Shown: piece after piece, positions 4,090 through 37,098 of the stretch | Layout of the letters: every line of letters begins with the position of its first letter | Position numbering within the stretch: position 1 is the stretch's first letter | NCBI RefSeq assembly: GCF_044324875.1 | Contig: NZ_CP172185.1 | Source of the DNA: Escherichia coli | Lineage (GTDB): Bacteria; Pseudomonadota; Gammaproteobacteria; Enterobacterales; Enterobacteriaceae | Length of the DNA stretch: 64,000 nucleotides | Strand: one strand, 5' to 3' | The notes under the pieces: generated by a model | What the model saw: the letters and a program-made list of their open reading frames with translations, nothing else | Told to the model about the DNA's origin: nothing | Databases searched by the model: none | Translations under genes and position numbers: made by a program

Positions 4090-5489
4090 ACTTCTCTCTG
4101 TAAATCCCGTTCCAGCGGTAACTCTACTGTAATGCTTACCCCGCCAAAAGGCGAATGGGCAGCAATAATGCGACCATTATGTGCTTCAACAATGTTCAGG
4201 CAAATCGCCAGCCCCAGCCCGGAACCGCCGCTGGCTCGGTTGCGGGAACCTTCGGTGCGATAAAAACGTTCAAACAATTTTTGTAGCTGATCGTCACTGA
4301 CGCCCGGCGCGCTGTCGGCAAAGGTCAGTCGCACCGTTTTGTCGTGCTGCTCGGCAGAGATTTTCAGGCTACCGCCGCTGTCAGTGTAGCGCAGGCTGTT
4401 TTCCAGTAAGTTATTGAATAACTGCATTAAACGGTCGCGATCGCCAAATACGGTAATACTGTCTGGCAGGGAAAATTGCAGTTTCAGGCCACGGCTGGCG
4501 AATCGTTCGCGAAATGCGCCGCCCGCCACTTCCAGCAGTGGGATCAAATCTACCGGTGCTTTTTGATAGGCGAGAGCGCCTTCATCAGACATCGACAACT
4601 GATGGAGATCGTCAACCAGTTTGGTCAGTGTACCGACCTCCGCCTGTAAAGACGCCACCGTCTCCGGCGTGAATTTACGCACGCCATCCTGAATGGCTTC
4701 CAGTTCACCGCGCAGCACCGCTAATGGCGTACGCAGTTCGTGAGAAATATCGGCCATAAAATCGCGCCGCATTTGCTGGTTTTTCTCCAGCGTGCTGGCA
4801 AGCTGGTTGAAGTCTTGCGCCAGTTTGCCCAGTTCATCTTCACTGGTGGGTGTCACGCGGGTAGTGAAATCGCCCGCCGCCAGTTTGTGCGTGCCGTCCA
4901 CCAGCCGTTTGACCGGGGCCAACAGACCACGCGCCAGCAGAAAGGTGGCGAGTGCCGCGAGTAACGTAGCCAGGGCGACAATCAGCCAGCTGGTTTGCCG
5001 CTGTTGTTTATCGAAATTGATATCAGTATTGCGGGTCAGTCGCTCAACAGGGGAGGCAATCACCGCACCCACTTCCGCACCGTTGACCAGAATGGGTCGC
5101 CGTGTACCGTCAGGTGGAATCGGCGCTCGCGGACCAACCAGCACTTTGTTGTTTTGATCGATCACCCAGAACTGAGTACGCCAGCCGTGCGGAGGCATAC
5201 CCGGGCCGGGTTTATCTTCCGAATTATCGTGTTCAAATGAACGCAGGATCTGAAAGACAAAGCGATCGTTGTTGCGCAGGAAGCGCCAGTTGCCATGCTG
5301 CGCATACTGCTCGCCAAGCGCATCACTTAACAGCTGTAATCGCTGTTCATTGCCGTGTTTGATGTAATCAATAAAGCCACGCTCAAAACTGATACGCACC
5401 GCCCAGTGCATACTGATCAGCAAGACAATGCAGGTGGCGAAAATCGCCAGAAACAGTTTGCCGGTAATACCGGGTCGCCAGAACTTCAT
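4086..5489 (-). CDS. baeS: envelope-stress sensor histidine kinase BaeS
   Basis: 467-aa ORF with N-terminal TM segment, HAMP, H-box (SHELRTPL) and HATPase motifs (GGSGLGLAI). Confidence 0.95.
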
Positions 5490-6901
5490 TGCGCGCTCCT
5501 TTTTCGCCGCGAAATAGCTACATTTTGATGCGTATCGTTCGGCACTCTGGCAAAGATGAACGCCGGAAGGGCGATGATAAACGCCATGCTAAGCCAGGTG
5601 TACATAAAGACGGTTTGTGTGGTGCCGCTGTCGACGCTGACATGCTGCGAACCAAAAAGTCCCAGCAACAGCCCGGCGATAGTGACGCCGATACTCATCG
5701 ACAATTGCATAATCATCGACAGCAGGCTGTTTCCGCTGCTCGCCAGATTGTCCGGGAGATCTTTCAGCGTCAGGGTGTTCATGGAGGAGAAACGGGTCGA
5801 GTTGACCATCCCTTGTAAAAACAGGACGAACGGCAAAACGTAGTACCAGCCCAACAGAGCGGTAGTCATAAACAATAGGGTGACCAGCGACAGACCCAGC
5901 GTGGTCGCTACCAGTACCCGACGATAACCAAAGCGATTCACTACCTGTACCACAATTCGCTTCATCCCCATGCTGCCGAGCACCATCGGGATCATCATCA
6001 GTCCGGCATGAAACGGTGAGAAGCCAAGGCCAATTTGCAGGAAAACCGGCGTCATAAAGGGCAACATGCCGCTACCGATACGTCCGGCAAAACTCCCCGC
6101 CAGGCCCAGCGAAAAGGTACGAGTACGGAACAGTTTCAGACTGAAAAGAGCGCGGTTGTTATTTCTGGCGTGCAGCAGATAAAGCACCAGTGCTACCACG
6201 CCAACTGCGACCAGGCCAGCAATCGCCAGCGGCGATAAACCTGTACCTTTACTGCCGTCCAGCGCCAGGGTTAATACCGCCATGCCAACCGCCAGCAATA
6301 AAAAGCCGGAGAGATCGAAGCGCCGCGTCTGCATGGTATAGTTCGGCATTAACATCAATGTGGCGATCGCGCCAATAATCCCCACCGGAATGTTGATTAA
6401 AAAGATCCAGTGCCACGACGCATATTCCACCAGCAGACCGCCGAGCGCCGGACCGAGCAGCGGACCGACCTGACCGGGTAACGTGACAAAGGTCATCGCC
6501 GCCATATACTGCTCGCGCGGTACGATTTTCATCACCGTCAACCTGCCGACCGGCACCATCATCGCACCGCCAACGCCCTGTAACGCGCGTGCCAGCAACA
6601 GTTCGTTCAGCGTGCCGGAAAGCGCGCAAAACAGTGAACCGAGAGTAAACAGTACGATGGCGGTAAAGAAAATATTGCGCACGCCGACTTTGTCCGCCAG
6701 CCAGCCGCTGGCGGGCAGCATCACCGCCACGGTCAGCACATAAGAGACAATGACCATGTGCATATGCAACGGACTTTCCCCGAGGCTTTGCGCCATTGAG
6801 GGAAGGGCGGTGTTTACGATGGTGGTGTCCAGCGACTGCATAAAGAAGCCGAAAGCCACAATCCACAATTGCCAGCGGGTGCTGTCGGGAAGATCTGTCA
6901 T
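5486..6901 (-). CDS. mdtD: MFS transporter MdtD
   Basis: 471-aa polytopic membrane protein with MFS-type motifs, located between mdtC and baeS as in the known mdtABCD-baeSR operon. Confidence 0.93.
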
Positions 6902-9900
6902 TTACTCGGTTACCGTTTGTTTAGGTTTACGCGAAAAACGCAGCCGCAGACGGTCGAAAAAGAGATACACCACCGGCGTGGTATACAGCGTCAGAAGCTG
7001 GCTCATTACCAGACCGCCGACAATGGTGATCCCCAGGGGTTGCCGCAGCTCCGAGCCGTCACCGCCCGACAATACCAGCGGCAGCGCACCAAACAGCGCC
7101 GCCAGGGTAGTCATCATAATCGGGCGAAAACGCAGCAGACAGGCCTGGAAAATAGCTTCCTGCGGCGTGAGGTTACCGTGCCGTTGGGCTTCAAGCGCAA
7201 AATCGACCATCATAATGGCGTTTTTCTTCACGATGCCGATTAATAGCATGATCCCTATCAGGGCGATTAGGCTGAACGGGGCATTGAACAGCTCCAGCGC
7301 CAACAGCGCTCCAACGCCCGCCGAGGGCAGGGTGGAGAGAATCGTCAGCGGATGTACGTAACTCTCGTAAAGGATACCCAGCACGATATACACCGTGGCG
7401 ATGGCGGCGATAATCAGGATCACCTGCGAGTTCATCGTCTCCTGGAACACCTGCGCCGTGCCGGCAAAACTACCGCGCACCGTCGAAGGCACACCAAGCT
7501 GGGTCATTGCGCGATCGATCGCCGCACTGGCGTCCGAGAGCGATTTCCCGGTCGGCAGGTTAAACGAAATGGTCGAGGCCGCCGATAATCCCTGATGATT
7601 CACCGACAGCGGAGCATTCGCCGGTTGCCATTTAGCGAAATACGACAGCGGGATCGCTTTTCCTTCGTTATTGATAACGAACATTTTTTCCAGCGCACTG
7701 ATGTCCTGGGTATAGCGCGGATCCACTTCCATCACCACTTTATACTGGTTCATCGGCTGGTAAATGGTCGAGATTTGTCGCTGACCGAAGGCGTTATTTA
7801 ACAGGCTGTTGGCGGCCTGCACGTCGATTCCCAGCCGTGCCATAGTGTCGCGGTCGTAAACCAGATTCATCTCCGCGCCGTTATCCTGCTGGTCGGAGTT
7901 CACGTCCGCCAGTTCCGGCAATGTCGCCAGTTTTTTGCGGATTTTCGGTTCCCATTCGCGCAGTGCCGCCAGGTCGTCGGACAGTAACGTGTACTGATAG
8001 CTGGCGTTCGACTGACGTCCGCCAACGCGAATATCCTGTACCGCCATCAGGAACAGATTCGCCCCTGGTTCTTTCGCCAGCTTCACGCGCAGACGGTCGA
8101 TAATTTGCTGCGCCGTTTCGCTGCGTTCGCCGCGTGGCTTGAGGGTGATAAACATCATCCCGCTGTTCACCCGCGAACCGCCGGTAAATCCGGTGACATT
8201 ATCCACTGCCGGATCGTCACGGATAATTTTCATGAAATCCTGCAACTTACCGCGCATCGCCTGAAACGAAATACTCTGATCCGCCTGTATCCCGCCCATC
8301 AACACGCCGGTGTCCTGCTCCGGGAAGAAGGTTTTCGGGATCGAGATATACAGCCAGATATTCAAAGCAATGGTGCCAAGCAGCACCACGCCCACCAGAC
8401 GGGTATGATTAAGCCCCCATTTCAGCGACTTACCATAGCCTTGTTGCAGGGCTACCAACATGCGACCAAAACCACGTAGTCGCTTTTGCTCGCGCGGCTT
8501 GCTGGCTTTTAGCATCCAGCCGCACATCATCGGCGTTAGCGTCAGGGAAACCAGCAACGAAATCCCAATGGCGACAGAAAGCGTCACGGCAAATTCGCGT
8601 AACAGTCGGCCCGGCAATCCGCCCATCAACAGCAGCGGCAGGAACACCGCCACCAGTGACAGACTCATCGACAGCACCGTAAAACCGACTTCGCGAGTGC
8701 CTTGCAGCGCGGCCTGTAGCGGTTTCATCCCCGCCTCCAGATGACGGGCGATGTTTTCCAGCACCACGATGGCGTCATCCACCACGAAACCAGTAGCGAT
8801 GGTGAGCGCCATTAACGAAAGATTATTGAGACTGAATCCGCACAGGTACATCGCCGCAAACGTACCAATCAGCGAAACCGGCACCGCAACGGCGGGAATA
8901 ATAGTGGCGCGACCCGAGCGCAGGAATAAAAAGACCACCAGAATGACCAGCGCCACCGAGATAATCAGCGTTTGCTCGACTTCCTCCAGCGAGGCGCGAA
9001 TAGTGGGGGAGCGATCCTGGGCAATTTGCAGATCAATCGCCGCCGGAATGGTCTCCTGCAACTCCGGTAATTTTGCCCGGATGCTGTCAACCGTCTGGAT
9101 AATATTGGCTTCCGGCAGCTTGCGGATCATCAGCAAAATAGCCGGTTTGGCGTTGGTCATCCCGGCGTTGCGCACATCCTGCACTGAGTCGGTCACCGTC
9201 GCCACATCGCCCAGACGAACCGCGCCGCCGTTGTTGTAATGAATAATCAGCGGCTGATATTCAGCGGCGGTTTTCAGTTCATCGTTAGTCTGGATCTGCC
9301 AGCGGTGAGTGCCATCTTCCAGCGCCCCCTGCGGTTTACGCACGTTGGCATTGCTGATGGCAGTGCGAACATCGTCCAGCGACACGCCCTGATTAAACAG
9401 CGCCTGCGGATTCAGCCCGACGCGTACGGCGGGCAGTGAGCTGCCGCCGACATCGACATCACCAACACCGTCGATTTGCGAAATCGTCGGAGCCAGCTGC
9501 GTCGAGGCGAAATCGTACAGTTCACCCTGCGAATAAGTATCGGATGTCAGCGTGAGGATCATTATTGGCGCATCCGACGGGTTCGCTTTGCGATAGGTCG
9601 GACGGCTTGGCATCCCGCTGGGCAGCAAACTTTGCGCGGCGTTGATCGCCGCTTGCACATCGCGCGCTGCGCCGTTGATATCGCGGTCAAAATCAAACTG
9701 CAAAATAATGCGCGTGCTGCCGAGCGAACTGCTGGAGGTCATTTCACTGACCCCGGCAATGCGCCCAAGTGAGCGCTCCAGCGGCGTGGCAACGGAAGAC
9801 GCCATTGTTTCTGGTGACGCACCGGGCAGCGAGGCGCTGACCATAATCACCGGAAAATCGACCTGCGGCAGCGGGGCGACCGGCAGCATACGGAAGCCCA

Positions 9901-9979: not shown

Positions 9980-12900
9980 TTACGCCTCCTCTTCATGACG
10001 AGCAAAGCGGCTTTTGGTCCACAATGCCAGGCGGTCGAATAGCAGATAAATCACCGGCGTGGTGAACAGCGTCAGCACCTGGCTGACAATCAGACCGCCG
10101 ACCATGCCGATACCTAACGGACGACGCAGTTCCGCGCCGACCCCGGTACTCAACATCAGCGGCAGCGCGCCAAGCAGAGCCGCCAGGGTGGTCATCAGGA
10201 TCGGACGAAAACGCAACAGACAAGCCTGGTAGATTGCATCGCGCGGCGACATGCCTTGCTCGCGCTCAGCAGCCAGCGCGAAGTCGATCATCATGATGGC
10301 GTTCTTCTTCACGATACCGATCAGCAAAATAATGCCGATAATTGCAATCACATCCAGTTCGCTACCGGCAATCATTAACGCCAGCAGTGCGCCAACACCT
10401 GCCGTGGGTAGCGTCGAGAGAATGGTGATCGGGTGAATAAAGCTCTCGTACAGAATGCCGAGCACGATATACATCGCCACCACCGCCGCGACAATCAGCC
10501 AGACAGTGCTGCCCAGCGCCGACTGGAAAGCGAGGGTGCTGCCCTGGAACTGCGTGGTGATATCCACCGGCAGATTCAGCGTCTTTTCGGTGTCCATAAT
10601 CGCCTGCACCGCATCGCCCAGCGAATAGTTATCCGGCACGTTAAAGGAGATAGTCGTTACCGGGAACTGATCCAGATGGTTGATGGAGAGCGGCGCAAAA
10701 CGCTGCTCAATTTTGGCAATTGAGCTTAGCGGCACCACGCCGCCGTCGCTGCTGGTCAGGCGAATGGTATCCAGCGCCGCGAGGCCTGGGGTATTTTCGG
10801 TGTTGTGTTCCAGCACCACGCGATACTGGTTAGCCTGAGTATAAATAGTGGAAATCAGCCGCTGACCAAACGCGTTGTACAGGGCGTTATCGACATCCGC
10901 CATGCTGATCCCCAGACGGCTGGCGCTGTCGCGATCAACATTGACATACGCCACCAGCCCTTGGTCCTGCCAGTCGCTGGAGACATCAGAAAGCTGTGGC
11001 AACTGCTGGAGTTTTTCCATCAACTGTGGCACCCAGGTACTGAGCGCATCCAGTGACGTGGCCTGCAAGGTAAACTGGTACTGGGTGCGGCTGACCTGAG
11101 TATCGATGGTCAGGTCCTGCGTTGGTTGCAGGAAGAGATCGACGCCCGGCACTTTATCCACCGCCGTTTGCAGACGGGCGATGACTTTTTGCACCCGGTC
11201 ATCTCGTTCATCCAGTGGTTTGAGATTGATCTGTAAACGCGCACTGTTCAGCGACGGGTTAGTGCCATCAACGCCAACAAATGAGGTCAAACTTTGCACT
11301 GCCGGATCCTGCAAAATCACGTCCGCGACCTGGCGTTGCCGCTGGGCCATATTGGCAAAGGAGCTGGATTGCGGTGCCTGCAAAGTGCCCTGAATAATGC
11401 CGTTGTCCTGCACCGGGAAGAAACCTTTCGGAATGAACACCCACAGCAGCACGCTAAGCAGCAGCGTGCTGAGTGCCACGCTTAAGGTCAGCCACGGATG
11501 ATTCAGCACTTTCGCCAGTCCACGACCATAGGCGGCGATTATCCTGTCGAACATTTTCTCCGAGGCTCGGGAGAAGCGATTCTGTTTACGCAGCGACTCC
11601 TGGCTGAGCATCCGCGCGCACATCATCGGCGTCAGAGTCAGCGACACCACGGCTGAGATCAAAATCGCGACTGCCAGAGTAATAGCAAATTCGCGGAACA
11701 GTCGCCCGACGATATCGCCCATAAATAGCAGTGGGATCAACACTGCAATCAGTGAGAAGGTCAGCGAGATAATGGTAAAGCCGATTTCACCCGCGCCTTT
11801 GAGCGCCGCCGCCAACGGTTTTTCGCCTTTTTCGATATAGCGGGAAATGTTTTCGATCACCACGATGGCGTCATCGACCACAAATCCGGTGGCGATAGTT
11901 AACGCCATCAGCGTCAGGTTATTGATTGAAAAATCGAGAAACACCATGACCGCGAAGGTGCCGATTAACGACAGCGGCACTGCGACGCCGGGAATGATGG
12001 TCGCCGGAATATTACGCAAAAACAGGTAGATAATCATGACTACCAGCGCGATAGCCATCATCAATTCAAACTGAGTATCATCGACGGATGCGCGAATATT
12101 GGTGGTACGGTCAGAAAGTACTGTCACCTTCACCGATTTCGGCAGACTCTCGGTGAGCTGTGGCAGCATCTGCCGGATGCTGTCGGCGGTGGAGATAATG
12201 TTAGCACCGGGCTGGCGCTGAACATTCATCACAATGGCCTGTTCTTTGTTCGCCCACGCGCCGAGCCAGCTGTTTTCTGCTCCTTGCTCTACGGTTGCGA
12301 CATCGCCCAGACGAATCGGCGCGCCGTTCTGGTAGGCGATGATTAGCTGGCGATACTCTTCGGCGGATTGCATCTGGTCGTTAGCGGAAAGCGTAACCGC
12401 ACGGGAAGGGCCGTCGAGGCTACCTTTTGCCGAGTTAACGTTAGCGCCGGTAATGGCGGTGCGCACGGTTTCGCTGGTCAGGCCGAGGGCGGCAATCGCC
12501 TGAGCGTTAAGTTTGACGCGAACAGCCGGACGCTGGCCGCCGGAAAGCGTCACCAGGCCGACGCCGGAAATCTGCGAGATTTTCTGCGCGACGCGGGTTT
12601 CCACCATATCTTCCACTTGCGTCATCGGCATGGCGGTTGAGGTGACGGCGAGCGTCATGATTGGTGGATCTGCCGGGTTCACTTTGCTGTAAACCGGCGG
12701 GTTAGGCAGATCGCTCGGCAACAAGTTGGTCGCAGCGTTAATCGCGGCCTGCACTTCCTGCTCGGCGACATCGAGCGGTAATGTTAGCTGGAACTGCAAA
12801 GTGATAACTGACGCACCGCCGGAACTTTGCGACGACATCTGTTTCAGGCCAGACATCTGCCCAAACTGGCGTTCAAGCGGCGCGGTAACGGCAGAGGTCA

Positions 12901-13102
12901 TGACATCCGGGCTCGCACCTGGGTAGAGCGTGACTACCTGAATGGTCGGATAGTCCACTTCCGGCAGCGCCGAAACGGGCAGGGCTCGATAACCGATAAT
13001 CCCGGCGAGTAAGATCGCCACCATCAGCAGCGTGGTGGCGACAGGACGCATAATAAACAGGCGCGACGGGCCGCCTGTGCTGCTCGGGGGTAACACCTGC
13101 AT
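9980..13102 (-). CDS. mdtB: RND multidrug efflux permease MdtB
   Basis: 1040-aa ORF, RND family, immediately upstream of mdtC (adjacent stop and start). Confidence 0.95.
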
Positions 13103-14585: not shown

Positions 14586-14727
14586 AAAGCCCCTCCCGAG
14601 GAAGGGGCCTTAAATAAGGAAAGGGTCATGATGAAGTGGATCATCATCGTGGTGCTCTTAGTGATTAGCTACCCAGCATACTAAGACTACCAGGGCGGGG
14701 GAAACCCCGCTCTACCCTCACTCCTGA
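14586..14727 (-). ncRNA. Sib-type antisense sRNA (antitoxin) covering ibs copy 1; ends approximate
   Basis: Sib RNAs are known to be encoded fully antisense to ibs ORFs. A GC hairpin at 14589..14610 on the minus strand is followed by a short T run and could be the Sib terminator. The 5' end is not determinable from sequence. Confidence 0.45.
14628..14684 (+). CDS. Ibs-family type I toxin (18 aa, MMKWIIIVVLLVISYPAY)
   Basis: ATGATG start preceded by aaggaaaggg; 18 hydrophobic codons then TAA; sits inside repeat unit 1. Matches the Ibs toxin family pattern. Confidence 0.75.
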   Translation: MMKWIIIVVLLVISYPAY

Positions 14728-14913
14728 AAGTATGCCTTCACGATAAGATTGTCAATCTGCAGGCTTTGCAGTCTGCGATCCTGCCAGCAAATATTCTTTG
14801 CGAGACGTTACGCAATAATCACACTGGAAACTATTTTATCCGCAAGTCAGCGATAGACTGCATACAGGGCGAAAGGAGGTAAGTCGACGATTTCAGCGGG
14901 ACGCTGAAACGGG

Positions 14914-15055
14914 AAAGCCCCTCCCGAGGAAGGGGCCTTAAATAAGGAAAGGGTCATGATGAAGCTACTCATCATCGTGGTGCTCTTAGTCATAAGCTTC
15001 CCCGCTTACTAAGACTACCAGGGCGGGGGAAACCCCGCTCTACCCTCACTCCTGA
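14914..15055 (-). ncRNA. Sib-type antisense sRNA covering ibs copy 2; ends approximate
   Basis: Placed by position equivalence with copy 1 within repeat unit 2. Confidence 0.45.
14956..15012 (+). CDS. Ibs-family type I toxin (18 aa, MMKLLIIVVLLVISFPAY)
   Basis: Same architecture as copy 1, in repeat unit 2. Confidence 0.75.
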   Translation: MMKLLIIVVLLVISFPAY

Positions 15056-15242
15056 AATTATGCCTTCACGATAAGATTGTCAATCCGCAGGCTTTGCAGT
15101 CTGCGATCCTGCCAGCAAATATTCTTTGCGAGTCGTTACGCAATAATCACAGAGGAAACTATTTTGTTCACGCGTTAGCGATAGACTGCATTCAGGGCGA
15201 AAGGAGGTAAGCCGACGATTTCAGCGGGACGCTGAAACGGGA

Positions 15243-15385
15243 AACCCTCTCCCGGAGAAGAGGGCTTTTAATAAGGAAAGGGTTATGATGAAGCACGTCA
15301 TCATACTGGTGATACTCTTAGTGATTAGCTTCCAGGCTTACTAAGAACACCAGGGGGAGGGGGAAACCTCTCCCTAACCCTCACT
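15243..15385 (-). ncRNA. Sib-type antisense sRNA covering ibs copy 3; ends approximate
   Basis: Placed by position equivalence. Hairpin ccctctcccggagaagaggg replaces gcccctcccgaggaaggggc of unit 1 with compensatory changes. Confidence 0.45.
15285..15344 (+). CDS. Ibs-family type I toxin (19 aa, MMKHVIILVILLVISFQAY)
   Basis: Same architecture in repeat unit 3. Flanking hairpins differ in sequence from units 1-2 but keep complementarity. Confidence 0.75.
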   Translation: MMKHVIILVILLVISFQAY

Positions 15386-15564
15386 CCTGAAATTATGTCA
15401 CTCCGCCCTTAGTGTCAATCGACGGCTCTCCGTTCTTGCGAGGCGAATAGCAAAATTTTCTGCGCCGCCGGGCCTAATTCTGAAAGTTGCTTTGCCTGCT
15501 CATATTTCATTGTTGCAGTCGGTATGATACCGGACCTCAATAATTCTCTAAGAAAGGATTTCTT

Positions 15565-16224
15565 ATGAGCGAACAAATCACGTTTGCCACCAGCGATTTT
15601 GCCAGTAACCCGGAACCACGTTGCCCCTGCATTTTGCTGCTGGATGTTTCTGGTTCTATGAACGGTAGACCCATTAATGAACTTAACGCCGGATTGGTTA
15701 CCTTTCGCGATGAGCTGCTTGCCGATTCGCTGGCCTTAAAAAGAGTGGAACTCGGTATTGTGACGTTCGGCCCGGTGCATGTGGAACAACCCTTTACCAG
15801 CGCCGCTAATTTTTTCCCGCCCATCCTGTTTGCCCAGGGCGATACACCAATGGGGGCCGCCATTACCAAAGCCCTGGATATGGTTGAGGAGCGCAAACGT
15901 GAGTATCGCGCCAATGGTATTTCCTATTATCGCCCGTGGATTTTCCTGATCACCGATGGCGCTCCAACCGATGAGTGGCAGGCTGCCGCCAACAAAGTGT
16001 TTCAGGGGGAAGAAGATAAGAAGTTTGCCTTCTTTTCCATCGGTGTTCAGGGGGCGGATATGAAGACTTTGGCACAAATCAGCGTTCGTCAGCCTTTGCC
16101 ACTGCAGGGATTACAATTCCGTGAACTGTTTAGCTGGTTATCCAGTTCGCTGCGTTCGGTTTCCCGCTCCACGCCGGGAACGGAAGTTGTGCTGGAAGCG
16201 CCAAAAGGCTGGACGTCAGTGTGA
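15565..16224 (+). CDS. yegL: von Willebrand factor A (vWA) domain protein YegL
   Basis: 219-aa ORF with MIDAS-like motif near the N-terminus ([12 protein letters not shown]) and the conserved TDGAPTD motif. AGGA SD upstream. Confidence 0.9.
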
Positions 16225-16982
16225 GCTGGCGTCTGGTCTATGCATCAACCGTTGGAACGTCGCACATCAGCGCGGACTTGCCTTGCCAGGATGCCTGCCA
16301 GATGCAGGTTGCCTGGTTAAATGACCAGCAGCCATTATTGTCGGTATTTGTCGCTGATGGCGCAGGCAGCGTCTCGCAGGGTGGCGAAGGTGCGATGCTC
16401 GCCGTCAATGAAGCGATGGCTTATATGTCGCAAAAAGTGCAGGGCGGGGAATTGGGGCTTAATGATGTCCTCGCAACGGACATTGTGCTGACCATTCGTC
16501 AGCGACTTTTTGCCGAGGCGGAAGCCAAAGAATTAGCGGTTCGCGATTTTGCCTGCACGTTTTTGGGATTGATTTCATCAGCTAATGGCACCTTGATTAT
16601 GCAGATTGGCGATGGCGGCGTGGTGGTAGATTTGGGTCACGGTCTGCAATTGCCTCTCACGCCGATGGTGGGTGAATATGCCAACATGACGCACTTCATT
16701 ACCGATGACGATGCTGTTTCCAGACTGGAAACTTACACCAGCACTGGGCGTGCGCATAAAGTTGCAGCATTTACGGATGGTATCCAGCGACTGGCGTTAA
16801 ATATGCTGGATAATTCTCCTCATGTGCCTTTCTTTACCCCGTTTTTCAATGGACTGGCGTCAGCAACGCAGGAACAACTCGATTTATTACCTGAATTGTT
16901 AAAGCAGTTTTTGTCCAGCCCGGCGGTAAACGAGCGTACGGATGATGATAAAACGTTGGCACTGGCGCTGTGGTTACCATGA
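16221..16982 (+). CDS. pphC: PP2C-family Ser/Thr protein phosphatase PphC (YegK)
   Basis: 253-aa ORF. GTG start overlaps the yegL stop (GTGA). PP2C-like metal-binding motifs ([17 protein letters not shown]). Confidence 0.85.
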
Positions 16983-18919
16983 AACCCACTTTATATACTG
17001 CTACTGGTGAGTGCGTTACGCCAGGCCGTGAACTGGGAAAAGGTGGCGAAGGCGCGGTTTATGATATCGAGGAGTTTGTCGATAGCGTCGCCAAGATTTA
17101 TCACACGCCGCCACCCGCCTTAAAACAGGACAAACTTGCCTTTATGGCTGCGACAGCTGACGCGCAATTGTTGAATTATGTCGCCTGGCCGCAGGCAACG
17201 CTTCACGGTGGACGAGGCGGAAAGGTTATCGGTTTTATGATGCCAAAAGTTTCTGGTAAAGAACCGATTCATATGATCTATAGCCCGGCACATCGTCGCC
17301 AACGTTACCCTCATTGTGCGTGGGATTTTCTACTCTATGTTGCGCGCAATATTGCTTCATCTTTTGCTACGGTTCACGAGCACGGGCATGTCGTGGGTGA
17401 CGTAAACCAGAACAGCTTTATGGTAGGCCGTGACAGCAAAGTGGTGTTGATTGATAGCGACTCCTTTCAGATTAACGCCAATGGCACGCTGCATTTATGC
17501 GAAGTCGGCGTGTCGCATTTTACGCCGCCAGAGCTGCAAACCTTGCCATCATTTGTCGGCTTTGAACGCACCGCGAATCACGATAATTTTGGCCTTGCGT
17601 TGCTGATTTTTCACGTCTTGTTTGGTGGGCGGCATCCTTATTCCGGTGTAACGCTTGTCTCTGATGCGGGTAATGCACTGGAGACGGATATTGCCCATTT
17701 CCGTTATGCCTACGCGTCAGATAATCAGCGACGTGGTTTAAAACCGCCGCCACGATCTATTCCGCTGTCGATGTTACCGGGCGATGTTGAAACCATGTTT
17801 CAGCAGGCATTCACGGAAAGTGGCGTGGCAACCGGGCGTCCGACGGCAAAAGCGTGGGTTGCGGCACTTGATTTACTACGCCAACAGTTAAAGAAATGTA
17901 CCGTTTCGGCAATGCATGTTTACCCCGGTCATTTGACTGACTGCCCGTGGTGTGCGCTGGATAATCAAGGCGTTATCTATTTTATTGATCTCGGCGAAGA
18001 GGTCATTACCACCAGCGGTGATTTTGTGCTGGCGAAAGTCTGGGCGATGGTGATGGCGTCAGTAGCACCGCCAGCATTGCAACTGCCATTACCCGATCAT
18101 TTCCAACTGACTGGCAGGCCGCTTCCTTTAGGCCTGTTACGGCGCGAATACATCATTCTGATTGAGATCGCACTGTCAGCGTTATCGCTGTTGCTTTGCG
18201 GCCTTCAGGCAGAACCGCGTTATATTATTTTGGTTCCTGTGCTGGCGGCTATCTGGATTATTGGCAGCCTGACAAGCAAAGCGTACAAAGCAGAAATCCA
18301 GCAACGCCGTGAGGCGTTTAATCGCGCGAAAATGGACTATGACCATTTAGTCAGCCAGATCCAACGGTTGGGCGGGCTGGAAGGTTTTATCGCCAAACGG
18401 ACGATGCTCGAAAAAATGAAGGACGAAATTCTTGGGTTACCGGAAGAAGAAAAGCGCGATCTGGCAGCACTTCAGGACACCGCAAGGGAACGGCAGAAGC
18501 AGAAGTTTCTGGAGGGATTTTTTATTGATGTTGCCTCTATTCCCGGCGTTGGCCCTGCGCGTAAAGCGGCGTTACGGTCCTTTGGTATTGAAACGGCGGC
18601 AGACGTTACCCGACGGAGCGTTAAGCAAGTTAGAGGTTTTGGTGATCATCTGACCCAGGCGGTTATCGACTGGAAAGCGAGTTGCGAACGCCGTTTTGTT
18701 TTCAGGCCGAACGAAGCGGTAACGCCTGCAGACAGACAAGCGGTAATGGCAAAAATGGCCGCCAAACGACATCGGCTGGAATCGACGTTGACTGTCGGTG
18801 CGACAGAGTTGCAGCGATTCCGCCTTCATGCTCCAGCACGGACCATGCCGTTGATGGAACCGTTACGTCAGGCGGCAGAAAAACTGGCTCAGGCGCAGGC
18901 AGATTTAAGCCGCTGCTGA
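16979..18919 (+). CDS. yegI: eukaryotic-like Ser/Thr protein kinase YegI
   Basis: ATG at 16979 overlaps the pphC stop (ATGA) and gives [11 protein letters not shown]..., matching recalled YegI. Gly-rich loop GKGGEGAVYD and kinase-like core (HVVGDVNQNSFMV), then TM segments and a C-terminal helical region. The ORF-track start at 16970 is a GTG three codons upstream. Confidence 0.85.
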   Translation: MKPTLYTATGECVTPGRELGKGGEGAVYDIEEFVDSVAKIYHTPPPALKQDKLAFMAATADAQLLNYVAWPQATLHGGRGGKVIGFMMPKVSGKEPIHMIYSPAHRRQRYPHCAWDFLLYVARNIASSFATVHEHGHVVGDVNQNSFMVGRDSKVVLIDSDSFQINANGTLHLCEVGVSHFTPPELQTLPSFVGFERTANHDNFGLALLIFHVLFGGRHPYSGVTLVSDAGNALETDIAHFRYAYASDNQRRGLKPPPRSIPLSMLPGDVETMFQQAFTESGVATGRPTAKAWVAALDLLRQQLKKCTVSAMHVYPGHLTDCPWCALDNQGVIYFIDLGEEVITTSGDFVLAKVWAMVMASVAPPALQLPLPDHFQLTGRPLPLGLLRREYIILIEIALSALSLLLCGLQAEPRYIILVPVLAAIWIIGSLTSKAYKAEIQQRREAFNRAKMDYDHLVSQIQRLGGLEGFIAKRTMLEKMKDEILGLPEEEKRDLAALQDTARERQKQKFLEGFFIDVASIPGVGPARKAALRSFGIETAADVTRRSVKQVRGFGDHLTQAVIDWKASCERRFVFRPNEAVTPADRQAVMAKMAAKRHRLESTLTVGATELQRFRLHAPARTMPLMEPLRQAAEKLAQAQADLSRC

Positions 18920-18931
18920 GCCATTTTTCAA

Positions 18932-20284
18932 TTAACGAAACACCACTTCCGCCCAGCGTGCCAGCCCGGCGGTGACGGAGCCAAAGTCATCGCCGCCTGC
19001 AATCGGAATGCCCGGCAACTGTTCTGCCAGCGCTTTTTTAATCAGCGGTGAACGGGCGCTACCGCCGGTCAGATAGATAACATCCGGTTTTTCCTGGGCG
19101 TTATCCAGCGCCAGTTGCACCTGTTCCAGAATCCGCGCCAGTGGCTGGTTGAGGGCGCTTTCCAGCCCTTGCTGGCTAATCAGCGTAGCCAGTTCATCGC
19201 TGATAAACGGCAGTGAGGCGCGGGTTTCCGCTACGCTTGAAAGCGCAATTTTGCTCTCTTCTGCGCTACGTACCAGGCGATAGCTTAAACGCTGACGCCA
19301 GACTTTCTGTAACAGGGCCACTTTTTCCGGTTCGCGGGCATCGCGTACCAGATCGTTAAGCAGACGACCGTTGGCACTACTGTAGAAATCACTTTGCGCA
19401 GGTACGTCGTTGATGGCAACCGCATTCCACCACGGCAGAATCGGCAGGGCGATGCCTTTTTCGGTTTCGCCACCCATGCCCAGTAACGGCATCAGGTTTT
19501 TAAACGCCAGTGCGATATCCAGATCGTTACCGCCAATACGGCAACCACTGTGACCCAGCAGGCTGGCTTCACGATCGAGACGCGAACGCCACTGCGGCCC
19601 CATCAGCAGCAATGAACAGTCAGTCGTACCACCGCCGATATCCACCACCAGCACCCGTTTTTCTTCCTGCAAGGTGGCTTCGTAATCCAGCCCAGCCGCG
19701 ACCGGCTCGTACTGGAATACCACATCCTTAAACCCGGCACGCTTCGCCGCGCGTTCCAGAATCCCCTGCGCCTGGGTGTTTGCTTCATCGCCGCCCAGCC
19801 CCTGGAAGTTGATAGGGCGACCAATCACCGCCTGAGTAATCGCTTCTGGCAGCTGTGCCTGCGCCTGCTGGCGAATGTGCAACATCATTGCGCAGACCAG
19901 ATCCTCAAACAGCGCTACCTGCTGCGGTTTTAAGCCGCTGGCACCGAGGAACGATTTTGGTGATTTCACAAACCACACTTCTTCTGGATCATCAATGTAC
20001 TGTGCCAGTGAGGAAAGACCGAACTGCACGCTTTTCGCCGTAACATCGATATATTCTTCGCGGTTATAACGAATCGCCCGACGCAGCAGCGCCTGCGTTT
20101 CATCGTCGTCTGCCGGAACATCATGATGGCGGTACAGCCATTCGCTTACCGCTTCACGCGTTGGCGCGCAAAGCATTGAAGGCAGCAGCGTGCTGTCGTT
20201 TTCCATTTTCAGTAATTGCGGCTTACCGTCGCGCATGACCGCCACTGAACAGTTTGCTGTACCGTAATCAAAACCAATAAACAC
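18932..20284 (-). CDS. yegD: Hsp70/actin-fold ATPase family protein YegD
   Basis: Probable GTG start at 20284 giving (M)FIGFDYGTANCSVAV (450 aa), matching recalled YegD. Hsp70 phosphate-binding motifs (VDIGGGTTDCS). The ORF-track extension to 20347 is probably not translated. Confidence 0.85.
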   Translation of the reverse strand: MFIGFDYGTANCSVAVMRDGKPQLLKMENDSTLLPSMLCAPTREAVSEWLYRHHDVPADDDETQALLRRAIRYNREEYIDVTAKSVQFGLSSLAQYIDDPEEVWFVKSPKSFLGASGLKPQQVALFEDLVCAMMLHIRQQAQAQLPEAITQAVIGRPINFQGLGGDEANTQAQGILERAAKRAGFKDVVFQYEPVAAGLDYEATLQEEKRVLVVDIGGGTTDCSLLLMGPQWRSRLDREASLLGHSGCRIGGNDLDIALAFKNLMPLLGMGGETEKGIALPILPWWNAVAINDVPAQSDFYSSANGRLLNDLVRDAREPEKVALLQKVWRQRLSYRLVRSAEESKIALSSVAETRASLPFISDELATLISQQGLESALNQPLARILEQVQLALDNAQEKPDVIYLTGGSARSPLIKKALAEQLPGIPIAGGDDFGSVTAGLARWAEVVFR

Positions 20285-32262: not shown

Positions 32263-34425
32263 ATGACAGAAAAAGTAAAACAACATGCCGCTCCGGTAAC
32301 GGGCAGTGATGAAATCGATATTGGTCGCCTGGTCGGCACCGTCATTGAAGCGCGCTGGTGGGTGATTGGCATCACCGCCGTATTTGCCCTCTGTGCCGTG
32401 GTTTACACCTTCTTCGCCACGCCGATTTATAGTGCCGACGCACTGGTACAAATCGAGCAAAACAGCGGCAATTCGTTAGTGCAGGACATTGGTTCGGCAT
32501 TAGCCAACAAACCGCCAGCATCGGACGCCGAGATCCAGTTGATTCGTTCGCGCCTGGTGCTTGGTAAAACGGTGGACGATCTCGACCTCGATATTGCGGT
32601 GAGCAAAAACACGTTCCCGATTTTCGGTGCGGGCTGGGATCGCCTGATGGGACGCCAGAACGAGACGGTAAAAGTGACCACCTTTAACCGCCCGAAAGAG
32701 ATGGCGGATCAGGTGTTTACGCTTAATGTGCTGGACGATAAAAACTACACTCTGAGCAGCGATGGCGGCTTTAGCGCCCGTGGGCAAGCGGGCCAGATGC
32801 TGAAAAAAGAAGGCGTCACACTGATGGTTGAAGCCATTCACGCCAGCCCGGGCAGTGAGTTTACCGTCACCAAATACTCCACGCTGGGGATGATCAACCA
32901 ACTGCAAAACAGCCTGACGGTAACGGAGAACGGCAAAGATGCTGGCGTTTTGAGCCTGACTTATACTGGAGAAGATCGCGAACAGATCCGCGACATTCTT
33001 AACAGTATCGCTCGTAACTATCAGGAACAAAATATTGAGCGCAAATCGGCGGAAGCGTCGAAAAGCCTCGCTTTCCTCGCGCAACAGTTACCGGAAGTAC
33101 GTAGCCGCCTCGATGTTGCCGAAAACAAACTGAATGCCTTCCGTCAGGATAAAGATTCAGTTGATCTGCCGCTGGAAGCGAAAGCGGTGCTCGATTCGAT
33201 GGTGAACATCGACGCGCAGTTGAACGAACTGACCTTTAAAGAAGCGGAAATCTCCAAGCTGTACACCAAAGTTCACCCGGCGTATCGCACGCTGCTGGAG
33301 AAACGGCAGGCGCTGGAAGACGAAAAAGCCAAACTTAATGGTCGCGTAACGGCGATGCCGAAAACCCAGCAGGAAATTGTGCGCCTGACCCGCGATGTCG
33401 AGTCTGGGCAGCAGGTCTATATGCAACTGCTGAATAAAGAGCAGGAGCTGAAAATCACCGAAGCCAGCACCGTCGGTGATGTGCGCATTGTTGACCCGGC
33501 AATCACCCAGCCTGGTGTGCTAAAACCGAAGAAAGGGCTGATTATCCTTGGGGCGATTATCCTCGGCCTGATGCTCTCTATCGTGGGTGTGCTGCTGCGC
33601 TCGTTGTTTAATCGCGGTATCGAAAGCCCGCAGGTGCTGGAAGAACACGGTATCAGCGTCTATGCCAGCATCCCGCTGTCGGAATGGCAGAAAGCGCGCG
33701 ATAGCGTCAAAACCATCAAAGGGATTAAACGCTATAAACAGAGCCAGCTACTGGCGGTGGGGAATCCAAGCGATCTGGCGATTGAAGCCATTCGCAGTCT
33801 GCGTACCAGTCTGCACTTCGCGATGATGCAGGCACAGAACAATGTGTTGATGATGACAGGGGTTAGCCCGTCAATCGGTAAAACCTTTGTCTGCGCCAAC
33901 CTGGCGGCGGTGATCAGCCAGACCAATAAACGGGTGTTGTTGATCGACTGCGATATGCGCAAAGGCTACACCCACGAGCTGTTGGGCACCAATAACGTCA
34001 ATGGCCTGTCGGAAATTCTGATTGGTCAGGGCGATATTACTACCGCAGCTAAACCGACCTCTATTGCCAAATTTGACCTGATCCCGCGCGGTCAGGTGCC
34101 GCCAAATCCTTCTGAACTGTTGATGAGCGAACGCTTTGCCGAACTGGTGAACTGGGCGAGTAAAAACTATGACCTGGTGTTGATTGATACGCCGCCGATT
34201 CTGGCAGTGACCGATGCGGCAATTGTTGGTCGTCATGTCGGAACCACGTTAATGGTGGCGCGTTATGCGGTCAACACCTTGAAAGAAGTGGAAACCAGTC
34301 TGAGCCGCTTTGAGCAAAACGGTATTCCGGTGAAAGGGGTGATTTTGAACTCCATCTTCCGCCGCGCCAGCGCGTATCAGGATTATGGCTATTACGAATA
34401 CGAATATAAGTCGGACGCGAAATAA
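32263..34425 (+). CDS. wzc: tyrosine autokinase/polysaccharide co-polymerase Wzc
   Basis: ATG at 32263 gives MTEKVKQHAAPVTGSDEIDIG (720 aa). Walker A (SPSIGKT) and C-terminal Tyr-rich tail (YQDYGYYEYEYKSD). Confidence 0.95.
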   Translation: MTEKVKQHAAPVTGSDEIDIGRLVGTVIEARWWVIGITAVFALCAVVYTFFATPIYSADALVQIEQNSGNSLVQDIGSALANKPPASDAEIQLIRSRLVLGKTVDDLDLDIAVSKNTFPIFGAGWDRLMGRQNETVKVTTFNRPKEMADQVFTLNVLDDKNYTLSSDGGFSARGQAGQMLKKEGVTLMVEAIHASPGSEFTVTKYSTLGMINQLQNSLTVTENGKDAGVLSLTYTGEDREQIRDILNSIARNYQEQNIERKSAEASKSLAFLAQQLPEVRSRLDVAENKLNAFRQDKDSVDLPLEAKAVLDSMVNIDAQLNELTFKEAEISKLYTKVHPAYRTLLEKRQALEDEKAKLNGRVTAMPKTQQEIVRLTRDVESGQQVYMQLLNKEQELKITEASTVGDVRIVDPAITQPGVLKPKKGLIILGAIILGLMLSIVGVLLRSLFNRGIESPQVLEEHGISVYASIPLSEWQKARDSVKTIKGIKRYKQSQLLAVGNPSDLAIEAIRSLRTSLHFAMMQAQNNVLMMTGVSPSIGKTFVCANLAAVISQTNKRVLLIDCDMRKGYTHELLGTNNVNGLSEILIGQGDITTAAKPTSIAKFDLIPRGQVPPNPSELLMSERFAELVNWASKNYDLVLIDTPPILAVTDAAIVGRHVGTTLMVARYAVNTLKEVETSLSRFEQNGIPVKGVILNSIFRRASAYQDYGYYEYEYKSDAK

Positions 34426-34435
34426 CGAGATCCGC

Positions 34436-34500
34436 TGTCGGATGCGATGCTGACGCATCTTATCCGACCTCCGTTCACGCCGCATCCGGCAACAGAACCC
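34436..34500. repeat. REP element between wzc and wcaA
   Basis: cggatgcgatgctgacgcatcttatccgacc...gccgcatccggca REP-type palindromes. Confidence 0.65.
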
Positions 34501-34553
34501 GTAAACAAGCTTATAAACCGGCAGAACATCTCGACACTCCGGGAGAACAACCT

Positions 34554-35393
34554 ATGAAAGACAATCCGCTGATCTCAATCTATATGCCGACCTGGAATCG
34601 CCAACAACTGGCGATTCGGGCGATAAAATCGGTCCTGCGCCAGGACTATAACAACTGGGAGATGATCATCGTGGATGATTGCTCCACCTCCTGGGAACAA
34701 CTCCAACAGTACGTCACCGCCCTCAACGATCCGCGTATCACTTACATTCACAACGACATTAACAACGGGGCGTGCGCGGTACGTAACCAGGCGATTATGC
34801 TGGCGCAAGGGGAATATATCACCGGGATCGATGATGATGATGAATGGACCCCCAACCGTCTGAGCGTCTTCCTCGCCCATAAACAGCAACTGGTCACACA
34901 CGCCTTTTTGTACGCTAACGACTACGTTTGCCAGGGCGAAGTCTATTCCCAACCGGCAAGTTTGCCACTGTATCCCAAATCGCCGTATTCACGCCGCCTG
35001 TTCTACAAACGCAATATCATTGGCAATCAGGTCTTTACCTGGGCGTGGCGTTTCAAAGAGTGTTTGTTCGATACCGAACTGAAAGCGGCACAGGATTACG
35101 ACATTTTCCTGCGGATGGTGGTGGAGTATGGCGAACCGTGGAAAGTGGAAGAGGCGACGCAGATCCTGCATATCAATCACGGTGAAATGCAGATCACCTC
35201 GTCACCGAAAAAATTCTCCGGATACTTCCACTTTTACCGTAAGCACAAAGACAAATTTGACCGCGCCAGCAAAAAATATCAGCTGTTTACCCTCTACCAG
35301 ATCCGCAATAAACGCATGACCTGGCGCACTTTGCTGACGCTGCTGTCGGTGCGTAACGGCAAACGTCTGGCTGATGGTATTCGGGGGCGCTAA
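34554..35393 (+). CDS. wcaA: colanic acid GT2 glycosyltransferase WcaA
   Basis: 279-aa ORF; GT2 signatures (ISIYMPTWNR, DDDDEW); position in the cluster. Confidence 0.9.
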   Translation: MKDNPLISIYMPTWNRQQLAIRAIKSVLRQDYNNWEMIIVDDCSTSWEQLQQYVTALNDPRITYIHNDINNGACAVRNQAIMLAQGEYITGIDDDDEWTPNRLSVFLAHKQQLVTHAFLYANDYVCQGEVYSQPASLPLYPKSPYSRRLFYKRNIIGNQVFTWAWRFKECLFDTELKAAQDYDIFLRMVVEYGEPWKVEEATQILHINHGEMQITSSPKKFSGYFHFYRKHKDKFDRASKKYQLFTLYQIRNKRMTWRTLLTLLSVRNGKRLADGIRGR

Positions 35394-35395
35394 AG

Positions 35396-35884
35396 ATGCT
35401 GGAAGATCTGCGCGCCAACAGCTGGAGTTTACGCCCGTGCTGCATGGTTCTTGCCTATCGCGTCGCTCATTTTTGTTCGGTGTGGCGCAAAAAGAACGTC
35501 CTCAACAATCTGTGGGCGGCCCCGCTGTTGGTGCTGTATCGCATTATTACCGAATGCTTTTTCGGTTATGAAATCCAGGCCGCCGCGACCATTGGCCGCC
35601 GCTTTACTATCCATCACGGTTACGCCGTAGTGATCAATAAAAACGTGGTAGCGGGGGATGATTTCACCATTCGCCACGGCGTCACTATCGGCAATCGTGG
35701 TGCCGATAACATGGCATGTCCACACATTGGCAACGGCGTCGAACTCGGTGCCAACGTCATTATTCTTGGTGATATCACGATTGGTAACAACGTCACCGTG
35801 GGCGCGGGCAGCGTGGTGCTCGACTCTGTCCCGGACAACGCGCTGGTGGTGGGAGAAAAAGCGCGAGTGAAGGTAATTAAATGA
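35396..35884 (+). CDS. wcaB: colanic acid acetyltransferase WcaB (hexapeptide-repeat)
   Basis: 162-aa ORF with left-handed beta-helix hexapeptide repeats (IGNRG..., IGNNVTVGAGSVV). Confidence 0.9.
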   Translation: MLEDLRANSWSLRPCCMVLAYRVAHFCSVWRKKNVLNNLWAAPLLVLYRIITECFFGYEIQAAATIGRRFTIHHGYAVVINKNVVAGDDFTIRHGVTIGNRGADNMACPHIGNGVELGANVIILGDITIGNNVTVGAGSVVLDSVPDNALVVGEKARVKVIK

Positions 35885-37098
35885 ATATTCTGCAATTTAA
35901 TGTGCGACTGGCGGAAGGCGGGGCAGCAGGTGTGGCGTTAGATCTCCACCAGCGCGCGCTGCAACAGGGGCTGGCGTCACATTTTGTCTACGGCTACGGC
36001 AAAGGCGGCAAAGAGAGCGTCAGCCATCAGAACTATCCGCAGGTCATCAAACATACGCCGCGGATGACCGCGATGGCGAACATTGCGTTGTTTCGTCTGT
36101 TTAATCGCGATCTGTTTGGCAATTTCAATGAGTTATATCGCACTATTACCCGCACACCGGGTCCGGTGGTCCTGCATTTTCATGTGCTGCACAGCTACTG
36201 GTTGAATCTTAACAGCGTGGTGCGCTTTTGCGAAAAAGTGAAAAACCATAAACCGGATGTCACTCTGGTCTGGACGCTGCACGACCACTGGAGCGTTACC
36301 GGACGCTGCGCCTTTACCGACGGTTGCGAAGGCTGGAAAACGGGCTGCCAGAAATGCCCGACCTTAAATAATTATCCGCCGGTGAAGATTGATCGCGCAC
36401 ACCAACTGGTGGCGGGCAAACGGCAGTTATTCCGTGAGATGCTGGCACTGGGCTGTCAGTTTATTTCCCCCAGCCAGCATGTGGCTGACGCTTTCAATAA
36501 CCTGTACGGTCCAGGGCGTTGCCGGATTATCAATAACGGTATTGATATGGCAACCGAAGCGATTTTGGCGGACTTGCCTCCGGTACGCGAAACCCAGGGC
36601 AAGCCGAAAATCGCGGTGGTGGCGCATGATCTGCGTTACGACGGCAAAACTAACCAGCAACTGGTACGCGAGATGATGGCGCTGGGTGACAAAATCGAAC
36701 TGCATACTTTCGGTAAGTTCTCACCGTTCACCGCTGGTAATGTGGTCAATCACGGCTTTGAAACCGACAAACGTAAACTGATGAGCGCGCTCAACCAGAT
36801 GGATGCGCTGGTATTCAGTTCTCGCGTCGATAACTACCCGCTGATTTTGTGTGAGGCGTTATCGATTGGCGTGCCGGTGATTGCCACCCATAGCGATGCG
36901 GCGCGTGAAGTGCTGCAAAAATCCGGTGGTAAAACCGTCAGCGAAGAAGATGTGCTGCAGCTGGTGCAGTTAAGCAAACCGGAAATCGCACAGGCGATAT
37001 TTGGTACCACGCTGGCTGAGTTCAGCCAGCGCAGCCGCGCCGCCTACAGTGGACAACAGATGCTGGAGGAGTATGTCAACTTCTATCAGAATCTGTAG
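35881..37098 (+). CDS. wcaC: colanic acid GT4 glycosyltransferase WcaC
   Basis: 405-aa ORF; start overlaps the wcaB stop; position in the cluster. Confidence 0.9.
   Translation: MNILQFNVRLAEGGAAGVALDLHQRALQQGLASHFVYGYGKGGKESVSHQNYPQVIKHTPRMTAMANIALFRLFNRDLFGNFNELYRTITRTPGPVVLHFHVLHSYWLNLNSVVRFCEKVKNHKPDVTLVWTLHDHWSVTGRCAFTDGCEGWKTGCQKCPTLNNYPPVKIDRAHQLVAGKRQLFREMLALGCQFISPSQHVADAFNNLYGPGRCRIINNGIDMATEAILADLPPVRETQGKPKIAVVAHDLRYDGKTNQQLVREMMALGDKIELHTFGKFSPFTAGNVVNHGFETDKRKLMSALNQMDALVFSSRVDNYPLILCEALSIGVPVIATHSDAAREVLQKSGGKTVSEEDVLQLVQLSKPEIAQAIFGTTLAEFSQRSRAAYSGQQMLEEYVNFYQNL

Follow-up and report, generated by a model that had tools for sequence, protein, structure and literature searches.

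What does the gene triad yegL–pphC–yegI do for Escherichia coli, and what follows from its interruption by a further gene, yegJ, in K-12? We address these questions from an uninterrupted copy carried in a 64,000-nucleotide stretch of one E. coli genome (assembly GCF_044324875.1, contig NZ_CP172185.1), hereafter the window, in which all positions are counted from the first letter. A sequence-only reading of the window had described the biological role of the triad in E. coli as unsettled, in agreement with the published studies, and had likened its architecture to TerY-P-type signaling modules. The operon, its translational coupling, its interruption in K-12, and the activities of its two enzymes are already known from the literature. 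The analysis reported here adds two results: an association of the wider family, which existing defense models do not recognize, with defense islands, and evidence that yegJ is an older occupant of the site than the triad itself. These comparative results make the function of the triad a testable question.

An Uninterrupted and Intact Operon

The three genes lie on the plus strand: yegL at 15565..16224 (219 aa from an ATG; a vWA protein with a metal-ion-dependent adhesion site, MIDAS), pphC, also called yegK, at 16221..16982 (253 aa from a GTG; a PP2C phosphatase), and yegI at 16979..18919 (646 aa from its ATG; an atypical Hanks-type Ser/Thr kinase), as delimited by open reading frames (ORFs) and their translations. 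An in-frame GTG at 16970, upstream of the yegI ATG, yields a mechanical ORF of 649 aa. Both codon overlaps marked by the sequence-only reading are present when read from the sequence: the yegL stop and pphC start share GTGA (16221–16224), and the pphC stop and yegI start share ATGA (16979–16982). In the complete genome closest to the window, the RefSeq annotation shows these three genes and both 4-nt overlaps. The source descriptions of the operon, Rajagopalan, Nagle & Dworkin (J Bacteriol 2018; 10.1101/303594) and Rajagopalan & Dworkin (FEBS Lett 2020; 10.1101/819920), give the ATGA overlap for REL606 and O157:H7 and the yegJ interruption for K strains; a 2026 paper in RNA Biol (PMC13232886) repeats the same layout.

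In 5400 of 5426 complete E. coli genomes, at least 80% of the triad locus is covered; there the window triad matches the regions annotated yegL, pphC, and yegI at 95–98% nucleotide identity, and the flanking mdtA/mdtB, yegD, alkA, and dgcE are shared. The best match in this set reaches 98.3% for the triad locus (tested as 15400–19100) and 98.9% for mdtB (tested as 9980–13102). The lineage of the window thus seems poorly represented in the set and may be Shigella or an uncommon E. coli lineage. On identity and architecture together, it is near certain that this region is the E. coli yegL–pphC–yegI operon in its uninterrupted form.

Within Escherichia (E. coli and a divergent lineage), ratios of nonsynonymous to synonymous substitution (dN/dS) are 0.03–0.08 for yegL, 0.08–0.14 for yegI, and 0.12–0.22 for pphC; all three genes are therefore maintained by purifying selection. 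The window alleles of YegL, PphC, and YegI retain every residue that is invariant in the family alignments. These observations bear directly on the idea that the triad was acquired long ago, is now silent and dispensable, and is slowly decaying in Escherichia. That idea draws on the failure to find a condition of robust expression (10.1101/303594, PMC13232886), on the recurrence of yegI mutations in long-term evolution lines (10.1101/303594), and on broken copies. Given the dN/dS ratios, the retained invariant residues, and the coverage of the locus across nearly all complete genomes, we regard decay as an improbable account.

In two cryptic-clade Escherichia representatives, yegI is disrupted and yegL and pphC are intact: MOD1-EC7003 has a nonsense codon after residue 460 (L003 ~7381–7383) and E1V33 a frameshift near residue 513 (L004 ~6040–6060), either of which may be a sequencing error. 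Fragmented copies are also present in some E. coli assemblies.

A Widespread and Mobile Three-Gene Module

A HMMER search with YegI against 1.84 billion representative proteins returned homologues in 9610 representatives, 3200 of them at E ≤ 1e-30, and most of the best 150 were full-length. A contig scan with one genome per species—a sample, not a census—recovered at least 80 triad loci, of which 77 come from other genera and three from non-K-12 Escherichia. The listed loci span Beta- and Gammaproteobacteria, Desulfobacterota, Paenibacillus, Frankia, Georgenia, Planctomycetota, Acidobacteriota, Chlorobi, Synergistota, and the archaeon Methanoregula. Every listed locus of judgeable length has the order vWA–PP2C–kinase, and a yegJ homologue occurs in none of the 80. 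Of the 73 loci in which all three genes could be placed, 54 have a 4-nt overlap of the vWA stop with the PP2C start, and 69 have a PP2C-to-kinase distance of −20 to +24 nt. Such packing, kept in 73 homologous loci from many phyla, is therefore not a product of chance. Clustering of the ORFs flanking the 80 listed loci gave no conserved fourth gene, only antisense artifacts and lineage-restricted neighbors. The triad is thus shown here to be a self-contained module whose gene order recurs across bacterial phyla and archaea. Because the loci from other genera are tightly packed and none carries yegJ, the uninterrupted operon is the ancestral form of the module.

The module also moves. Plasmid records with YegI homologues number 83; 46 are predicted to be conjugative, and the set includes Pseudomonas megaplasmids and plasmids of Agrobacterium and Rhizobium. 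The phage genomes searched gave one weak, partial match, so the module is not phage-borne.

Among Enterobacteriaceae, the distribution is patchy. Close YegI homologues, at 90–97% identity, occur in Escherichia (E. coli, E. marmotae, and other Escherichia species); the next are from Klebsiella spallanzanii and K. aerogenes (61–63%) and from Burkholderiales (60%). The triad thus appears to be confined to Escherichia within the family, apart from the distant Klebsiella copies, and appears to be absent from Salmonella and Citrobacter, an absence judged mainly by the identity gap of YegI homologues; the database used was clustered at 90% identity, a resolution too coarse to place E. albertii or E. 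fergusonii. The drop from 90% or more to 63% suggests that the Escherichia lineage acquired the triad horizontally, and the triad looks like a later arrival in that genus.

Defense Genes Beside the Triad

The sequence-only reading had called for a search for the triad in defense islands, and the search found strong defense neighbors in a minority of loci. From 33 nonredundant loci, we took 40 large ORFs no more than three genes away from the triad and compared them with the PADLOC models. Eight of the 40, in seven of the 33 loci, gave strong, near full-length matches—JetC (1236 bits), Avs2 (1119 bits), HsdM (903 bits), JetA (760 bits), GajB (732 bits), GajA (715 bits), PDC-S01 (583 bits; a PADLOC candidate, not a validated system), and HsdR (398 bits)—and four more matches were ambiguous. 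The systems adjoining the triad in these seven loci are Wadjet, Gabija, Avs2, type I restriction–modification, or the candidate PDC-S01. In Caenimonas, a complete JetABC set begins 164 nt past the kinase stop; in Duganella, HsdM and HsdS lie near the triad; and on a Rhizobium rhizogenes plasmid, GajB and a DUF262/HEC-05 protein flank it.

These neighborhoods matter for how the triad relates to TerY-P. Triads of vWA, PP2C, and kinase genes were defined by comparative genomics as TerY-P (Anantharaman et al. 2012, as cited in later work). One TerY-P system (Gao et al. 2020, as cited in later work) joins its kinase to an OB fold and guards E. coli against T7-like phages; a Pseudomonas aeruginosa TerY-P (Costa et al. 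2024) protects against Autographiviridae without culture collapse; and CoCoNuT systems of types II and III-A, which are McrBC-like, embed TerY-P triads with a zinc ribbon after the kinase. The E. coli triad has the TerY-P composition, with vWA (TerY-like), PP2C, and Ser/Thr kinase genes in one operon, so the resemblance proposed by the sequence-only reading is borne out at the level of architecture, while the PADLOC TerY-P models give no significant match. Filing the operon under the PADLOC TerY-P family was accordingly rejected.

The likeness and the differences can be made specific. With the system of Gao et al. it shares the three-gene vWA/PP2C/kinase layout, a kinase with a C-terminal domain of putative nucleic-acid-binding type, and, at some loci of the wider family, residence in defense islands; the kinase there carries an OB fold, whereas YegI carries a Zn-knuckle-like motif, a transmembrane hairpin, a coiled coil, and a helix–hairpin–helix (HhH) domain. 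With the CoCoNuT triads the likeness is one of position: The invariant C-H-C-C motif of YegI, a putative metal site, lies where they have a zinc ribbon. CoCoNuT triads are embedded in larger systems, whereas the YegI-type triad stands alone and adds the membrane hairpin and HhH stalk. On this comparison we treat the yeg triad as a distinct class that probably works like TerY-P. It is a large, mobile family that PADLOC models do not recognize at a significant level.

The same neighborhoods speak to another possibility, a Ter-type sensor of metal or tellurite stress in which the MIDAS site of YegL would sense metal and the kinase and phosphatase would relay the signal. TerY-P was defined around tellurite-resistance loci and proposed as a metal-sensing phospho-switch (Anantharaman et al. 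2012, cited second-hand), and the MIDAS residues of YegL are invariant. Yet ter genes are absent from the annotated neighbors of the E. coli locus, the 80 listed loci share no conserved neighbor family, and the neighbors that could be identified are restriction and defense genes; we consider a metal sensor very unlikely.

Protein Architecture and Published Biochemistry

YegL matches Pfam VWA (E = 2e-9), and its MIDAS motif is intact: D27-x-S29-x-S31, T94, and D131 are invariant in a 62-sequence alignment. The same alignment identifies a family-invariant, Ser-rich C-terminal tail (W191, L192, S193, S195, S200, and S202; nt 16135–16170, plus strand). PphC matches Pfam PP2C_2 (E = 1e-51) and conserves D46, D186, G187, D242, and D243 over 54 homologues; D46 is the catalytic residue mutated in published work (10.1101/303594).

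YegI required more sensitive comparison. A Pfam search returned no Pkinase match even at E up to 10; its sole match, at residues 515–551, was HHH_5. A family profile built from 58 homologues nevertheless matches the PDB kinases TTK, RSK, and PknE (E = 1e-6 to 2e-4). The AlphaFold (AF2) model has a mean pLDDT (predicted local distance difference test) of 92.8, and Foldseek places BRAF, LCK, and PknB as its best structural matches (E ~1e-7; TM-score, normalized to target length, ~0.7). On the profile match and the model comparison, the assignment of a protein-kinase fold below the detection limit of Pfam Pkinase holds. The sequence-only reading had named a vWA/MIDAS protein, a PP2C phosphatase, and a kinase on one strand, the last with a membrane and helical C-terminal half; Pfam for the first two, and the profile and structural model for the third, agree with every element of that description.

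In the models, the kinase domain spans approximately residues 1–302 (nt 16979–17884, plus strand). Invariant across the 58-sequence alignment are the G-rich loop (G20–G25), K39, D141/N143, D159/D161, S162 (the autophosphorylation site; nt 17462–17464, plus strand), and E185. YegI retains 7 of 10 conserved kinase residues, and several canonical ones are absent (10.1101/819920). A Zn-knuckle-like motif follows, C307-x5-H313-x8-C322-x2-C325 (17897..17953, plus strand), invariant in the family and, judged from the motif, a putative metal-binding site. In the models, a linker then leads from this element (307–325) to the hydrophobic helices. Two hydrophobic stretches form a transmembrane hairpin at approximately residues 389–433 (18143..18277, plus strand; model helices 388–408 and 418–430), consistent with the experimentally determined two-helix hairpin that leaves both termini in the cytoplasm (10.1101/819920). 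The cytoplasmic C-terminal module (18284..18916, plus strand) is modeled as an antiparallel coiled-coil stalk with an HhH domain at its tip; the HHH_5 match (nt 18521–18631, plus strand) falls within the modeled HhH domain (~515–582), and the HhH signature is conserved in the family alignment.

The enzymatic activities raised by the sequence-only reading are already documented. PphC shows PP2C activity that the D46N mutation abolishes, and it dephosphorylates YegI, as shown with REL606 proteins (10.1101/303594, 10.1101/819920). YegI, a kinase of the inner membrane, phosphorylates itself with second-order kinetics; mutants of K39 and D141 were examined, and S162 is important (10.1101/819920). 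The residues of proven experimental importance—YegI K39, D141, and S162 and PphC D46—are all present in the window. In kinase fold, adjacent cotranscribed phosphatase, trans-autophosphorylation, and phosphatase action on the kinase, the pair resembles PknB/PstP and PrkC/PrpC. It differs from them in that YegI has no extracellular sensor domain, is always paired with a vWA gene, and lies below Pkinase detection. YegL and YegI are also among the E. coli proteins that raise DNA damage when overproduced (Xia et al., 10.1101/354589).

A Candidate DNA-Responsive Phospho-Switch

These elements suggest a mechanism. At rest, PphC would hold YegI off. The HhH tip of the coiled-coil stalk, perhaps with the Zn knuckle, may read a cue from incoming or aberrant DNA at the inner membrane; clustering of YegI at the membrane by this cue would then allow mutual phosphorylation, followed by phosphorylation of targets. 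Foremost among candidate substrates stands YegL with its invariant Ser-rich tail, and phosphorylated YegL could engage an effector or target through its MIDAS metal site before PphC resets the switch. Protection against phage or other foreign DNA would be the most likely output, because the family is mobile and occurs in defense-gene neighborhoods.

We hold the entire package—uninterrupted operon, TerY-P-like phospho-switch, DNA cue, YegL as target, and protection against phage or foreign DNA—at evenly balanced odds. Taken separately, the defense output stands somewhat below an even chance, and the DNA-sensing step lower again. If protection against phages or plasmids proves true, it would explain what genes present in nearly all E. 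coli do and would extend TerY-P by a new class.

Several observations weigh against this proposal. Against PADLOC-DB v2, YegL reaches the "TerY" model only at E = 0.013 (13 bits; not significant), PphC has no match at E up to 10, and YegI matches only the kinase regions of PD-T4-6 and MkoA. Of the sampled loci, 26 of 33 lack a strong defense neighbor. The defense neighbors are an association and not a calibrated enrichment: The control, 10 large window ORFs that gave no match at the same PADLOC threshold, is small and comes from a single genome. The HhH domain, a candidate DNA binder, is recognized by a weak Pfam match (E = 1e-3). The literature searched contained no experimental link between yegLKI and phage, and the reported lack of robust expression counts here as well. 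A consensus scan upstream of yegL found no convincing sigma-70 promoter. Finally, the E. coli locus does not behave as a variable defense island: It is fixed between mdtABCD–baeSR and yegD, near-universal in the species, and has no recognized defense or restriction genes annotated beside it.

This fixed position also speaks for a different reading, in which YegI and PphC form an endogenous signaling pair that tunes host proteins under envelope, stationary-phase, or other stress, with YegL as adaptor. Bacterial Hanks kinase/PP2C pairs, such as PknB/PstP, commonly regulate physiology. The locus belongs to the E. coli core genome and adjoins both the BaeSR/MdtABCD envelope-stress locus and the Hsp70-like yegD; genes maintained for a cellular function typically show the purifying selection seen here; and weak expression has been reported in stationary phase (10.1101/819920). 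Outside E. coli the picture changes: Within Enterobacteriaceae the triad is found only in Escherichia and as distant Klebsiella copies and looks horizontally acquired, and elsewhere it resides on conjugative plasmids, without a conserved host-gene neighbor among the listed loci and often beside defense systems. Such a patchy, mobile, and defense-adjoining distribution agrees better with an autonomous accessory module than with a host regulatory circuit, and we judge the endogenous pair somewhat unlikely.

Two Junction Haplotypes

The sequence-only reading placed a yegJ gene between pphC and yegI in K-12 and contrasted it with the direct coupling in the window. Alignment upholds both points. 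In NEB Turbo, a K-12 derivative (locus L001), yegJ encodes 153 aa at 4148–4609 on the strand opposite to pphC and yegI, so that the same three genes appear in the order yegL–pphC / yegJ / yegI. BLAST homology breaks at 16973/17024 in the window and at 4074/4860 in L001. The junction segment of the window (16974..17023, plus strand) is thus 50 bp, comprising the last three pphC codons, the overlap, and the first 15 yegI codons, against a 785-bp segment with yegJ in K-12-type strains. Outside the junction, the two are ~96% identical.

One segment thus stands in place of another, and a clean insertion would not produce this difference. The PphC C-terminus reads ALWLP in the window and ALWAE in K-12; K-12 YegI starts MKTNIKVFTSTGELTTL, and the window N-terminus is homologous to MKTNIKVFTSTGELTTL yet strongly diverged. 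At 37% GC, the 785-bp segment is AT-rich; the triad has 52% GC. In the K-12 form, translational coupling of phosphatase to kinase is lost. Derivation of the uninterrupted form by deletion from the K-12 form was considered and rejected, as the 785-bp segment does not contain the 50-bp junction. The proposal that the uninterrupted form is ancestral holds for the module, given the lack of yegJ at other loci; an extra gene inserted in K-12 is too simple an account, since yegJ is older than the triad at this site.

Among the 5426 complete E. coli genomes, the uninterrupted junction occurs in 3471, including sequence type (ST) 131, O157:H7, and REL606, and the yegJ segment in 1934 (~36%). The window carries the majority form, that of about two thirds of E. 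coli. Its junction sequence is shared by the three non-K-12 Escherichia representatives.

Allelic variation in pphC follows other lines. Its allele classes are deeply diverged independently of yegJ status, as seen on comparing the window with the K-12 (L001) and REL606 (L092) loci. The REL606 operon has the same genes, chromosomal site, ATGA overlap, and 646-aa YegI as the window and differs from it only in alleles; over much of pphC, though, the window is nearer to K-12 than to REL606. REL606 and K-12 pphC differ at up to 22 of 150 nt, and over those stretches the window equals K-12. Synonymous divergence (dS) of pphC reaches 0.29–0.31 among E. coli strains and rises to 0.83 in the comparison with strain E69; neighboring genes show 0.08–0.18. 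RefSeq gives the two pphC classes different names, "PphC" and "PP2C family".

yegJ as the Older Occupant of the Site

The nearest YegJ proteins outside E. coli are 73–76% identical, and their genes lie between yegD and mdtA, in the K-12 orientation, in Superficieibacter electus and a related metagenomic contig (L088 6001–6462 and L086 6001–6462). Neither of these carries any trace of the triad. Nucleotide identity between yegJ and these orthologues is 74–75%, and that of the flanking mdtA and yegD is 77–79% each; divergence equal to that of the flanks is what vertical descent predicts. With orthologues in triad-less Enterobacteriaceae at flank-like divergence, yegJ is therefore older than the triad at this site. 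The same outgroup synteny and flank-equal divergence led us to reject yegJ as a recent foreign insertion. This corrects the published view of yegJ as a K-strain-specific insertion without relatives.

Within E. coli, an ST69 strain carries a diverged yegJ allele with the K-12 junction points and YegI N-terminus and an insert ~5% different from that of K-12. Elsewhere in E. coli, divergence between insert alleles rises to ~9%, against 2–5% in the flanks. The shared junction argues that the yegJ-containing haplotype arose once, and divergence of the insert above that of the flanks indicates that both haplotypes are old. The coupled and uncoupled haplotypes form a natural pair for functional comparison.

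K-12 YegJ belongs to DUF2314 (Pfam, 3e-25). It has been reported to bind the RNase E N-terminal domain, to be toxic and membrane-damaging on overproduction, and, when overexpressed, to induce yegD (PMC13232886). Its N-terminus, MKKILLMLSLLFFTTAGFS, resembles a Sec signal peptide; such a leader would fit poorly with a role as a cytoplasmic partner of RNase E (PMC13232886) and better with the membrane damage.

The two lines of evidence can be joined in a broader proposal. In it, yegLKI would be a working member of an unrecognized and widespread TerY-P-like immune class, in which a membrane kinase with an HhH stalk reads foreign DNA and signals by phosphorylating a MIDAS protein; the yegJ split would be an ancient, single-origin, maintained polymorphism that uncouples kinase from phosphatase and tunes the module, with the older yegJ nested inside it. 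We regard this synthesis as possible but doubtful.

Chromosomal Setting in E. coli

The gene order around the triad is mdtB, mdtA (minus strand), three Sib antitoxin RNAs, the triad, yegD (minus strand), alkA, and dgcE (minus strand), a setting that assigns the window to a chromosome of E. coli type. The Sib RNAs lie in tandem on the minus strand at 14613–14755, 14941–15083, and 15270–15418 (Rfam SIB_RNA, 139–150 bits), so that three copies of the ibs/sib type I toxin–antitoxin system separate mdtA from yegL. Downstream, a scan found no terminator-like hairpin after yegI, and yegI and the convergent yegD end 12 bp apart (18919–18932), an arrangement in which transcription could read through in either direction.

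The number of ibs/sib copies varies among strains: the window has three, the K-12 derivative two, and REL606 and FDAARGOS_1286 four each. About 30 kb from the triad, REL606 also carries a P2-like prophage beside yegQ/yegR (L092 ~32707–36398) with genes for an "ABC-three component system" and an AAA ATPase, which are probably a phage-borne defense cassette.

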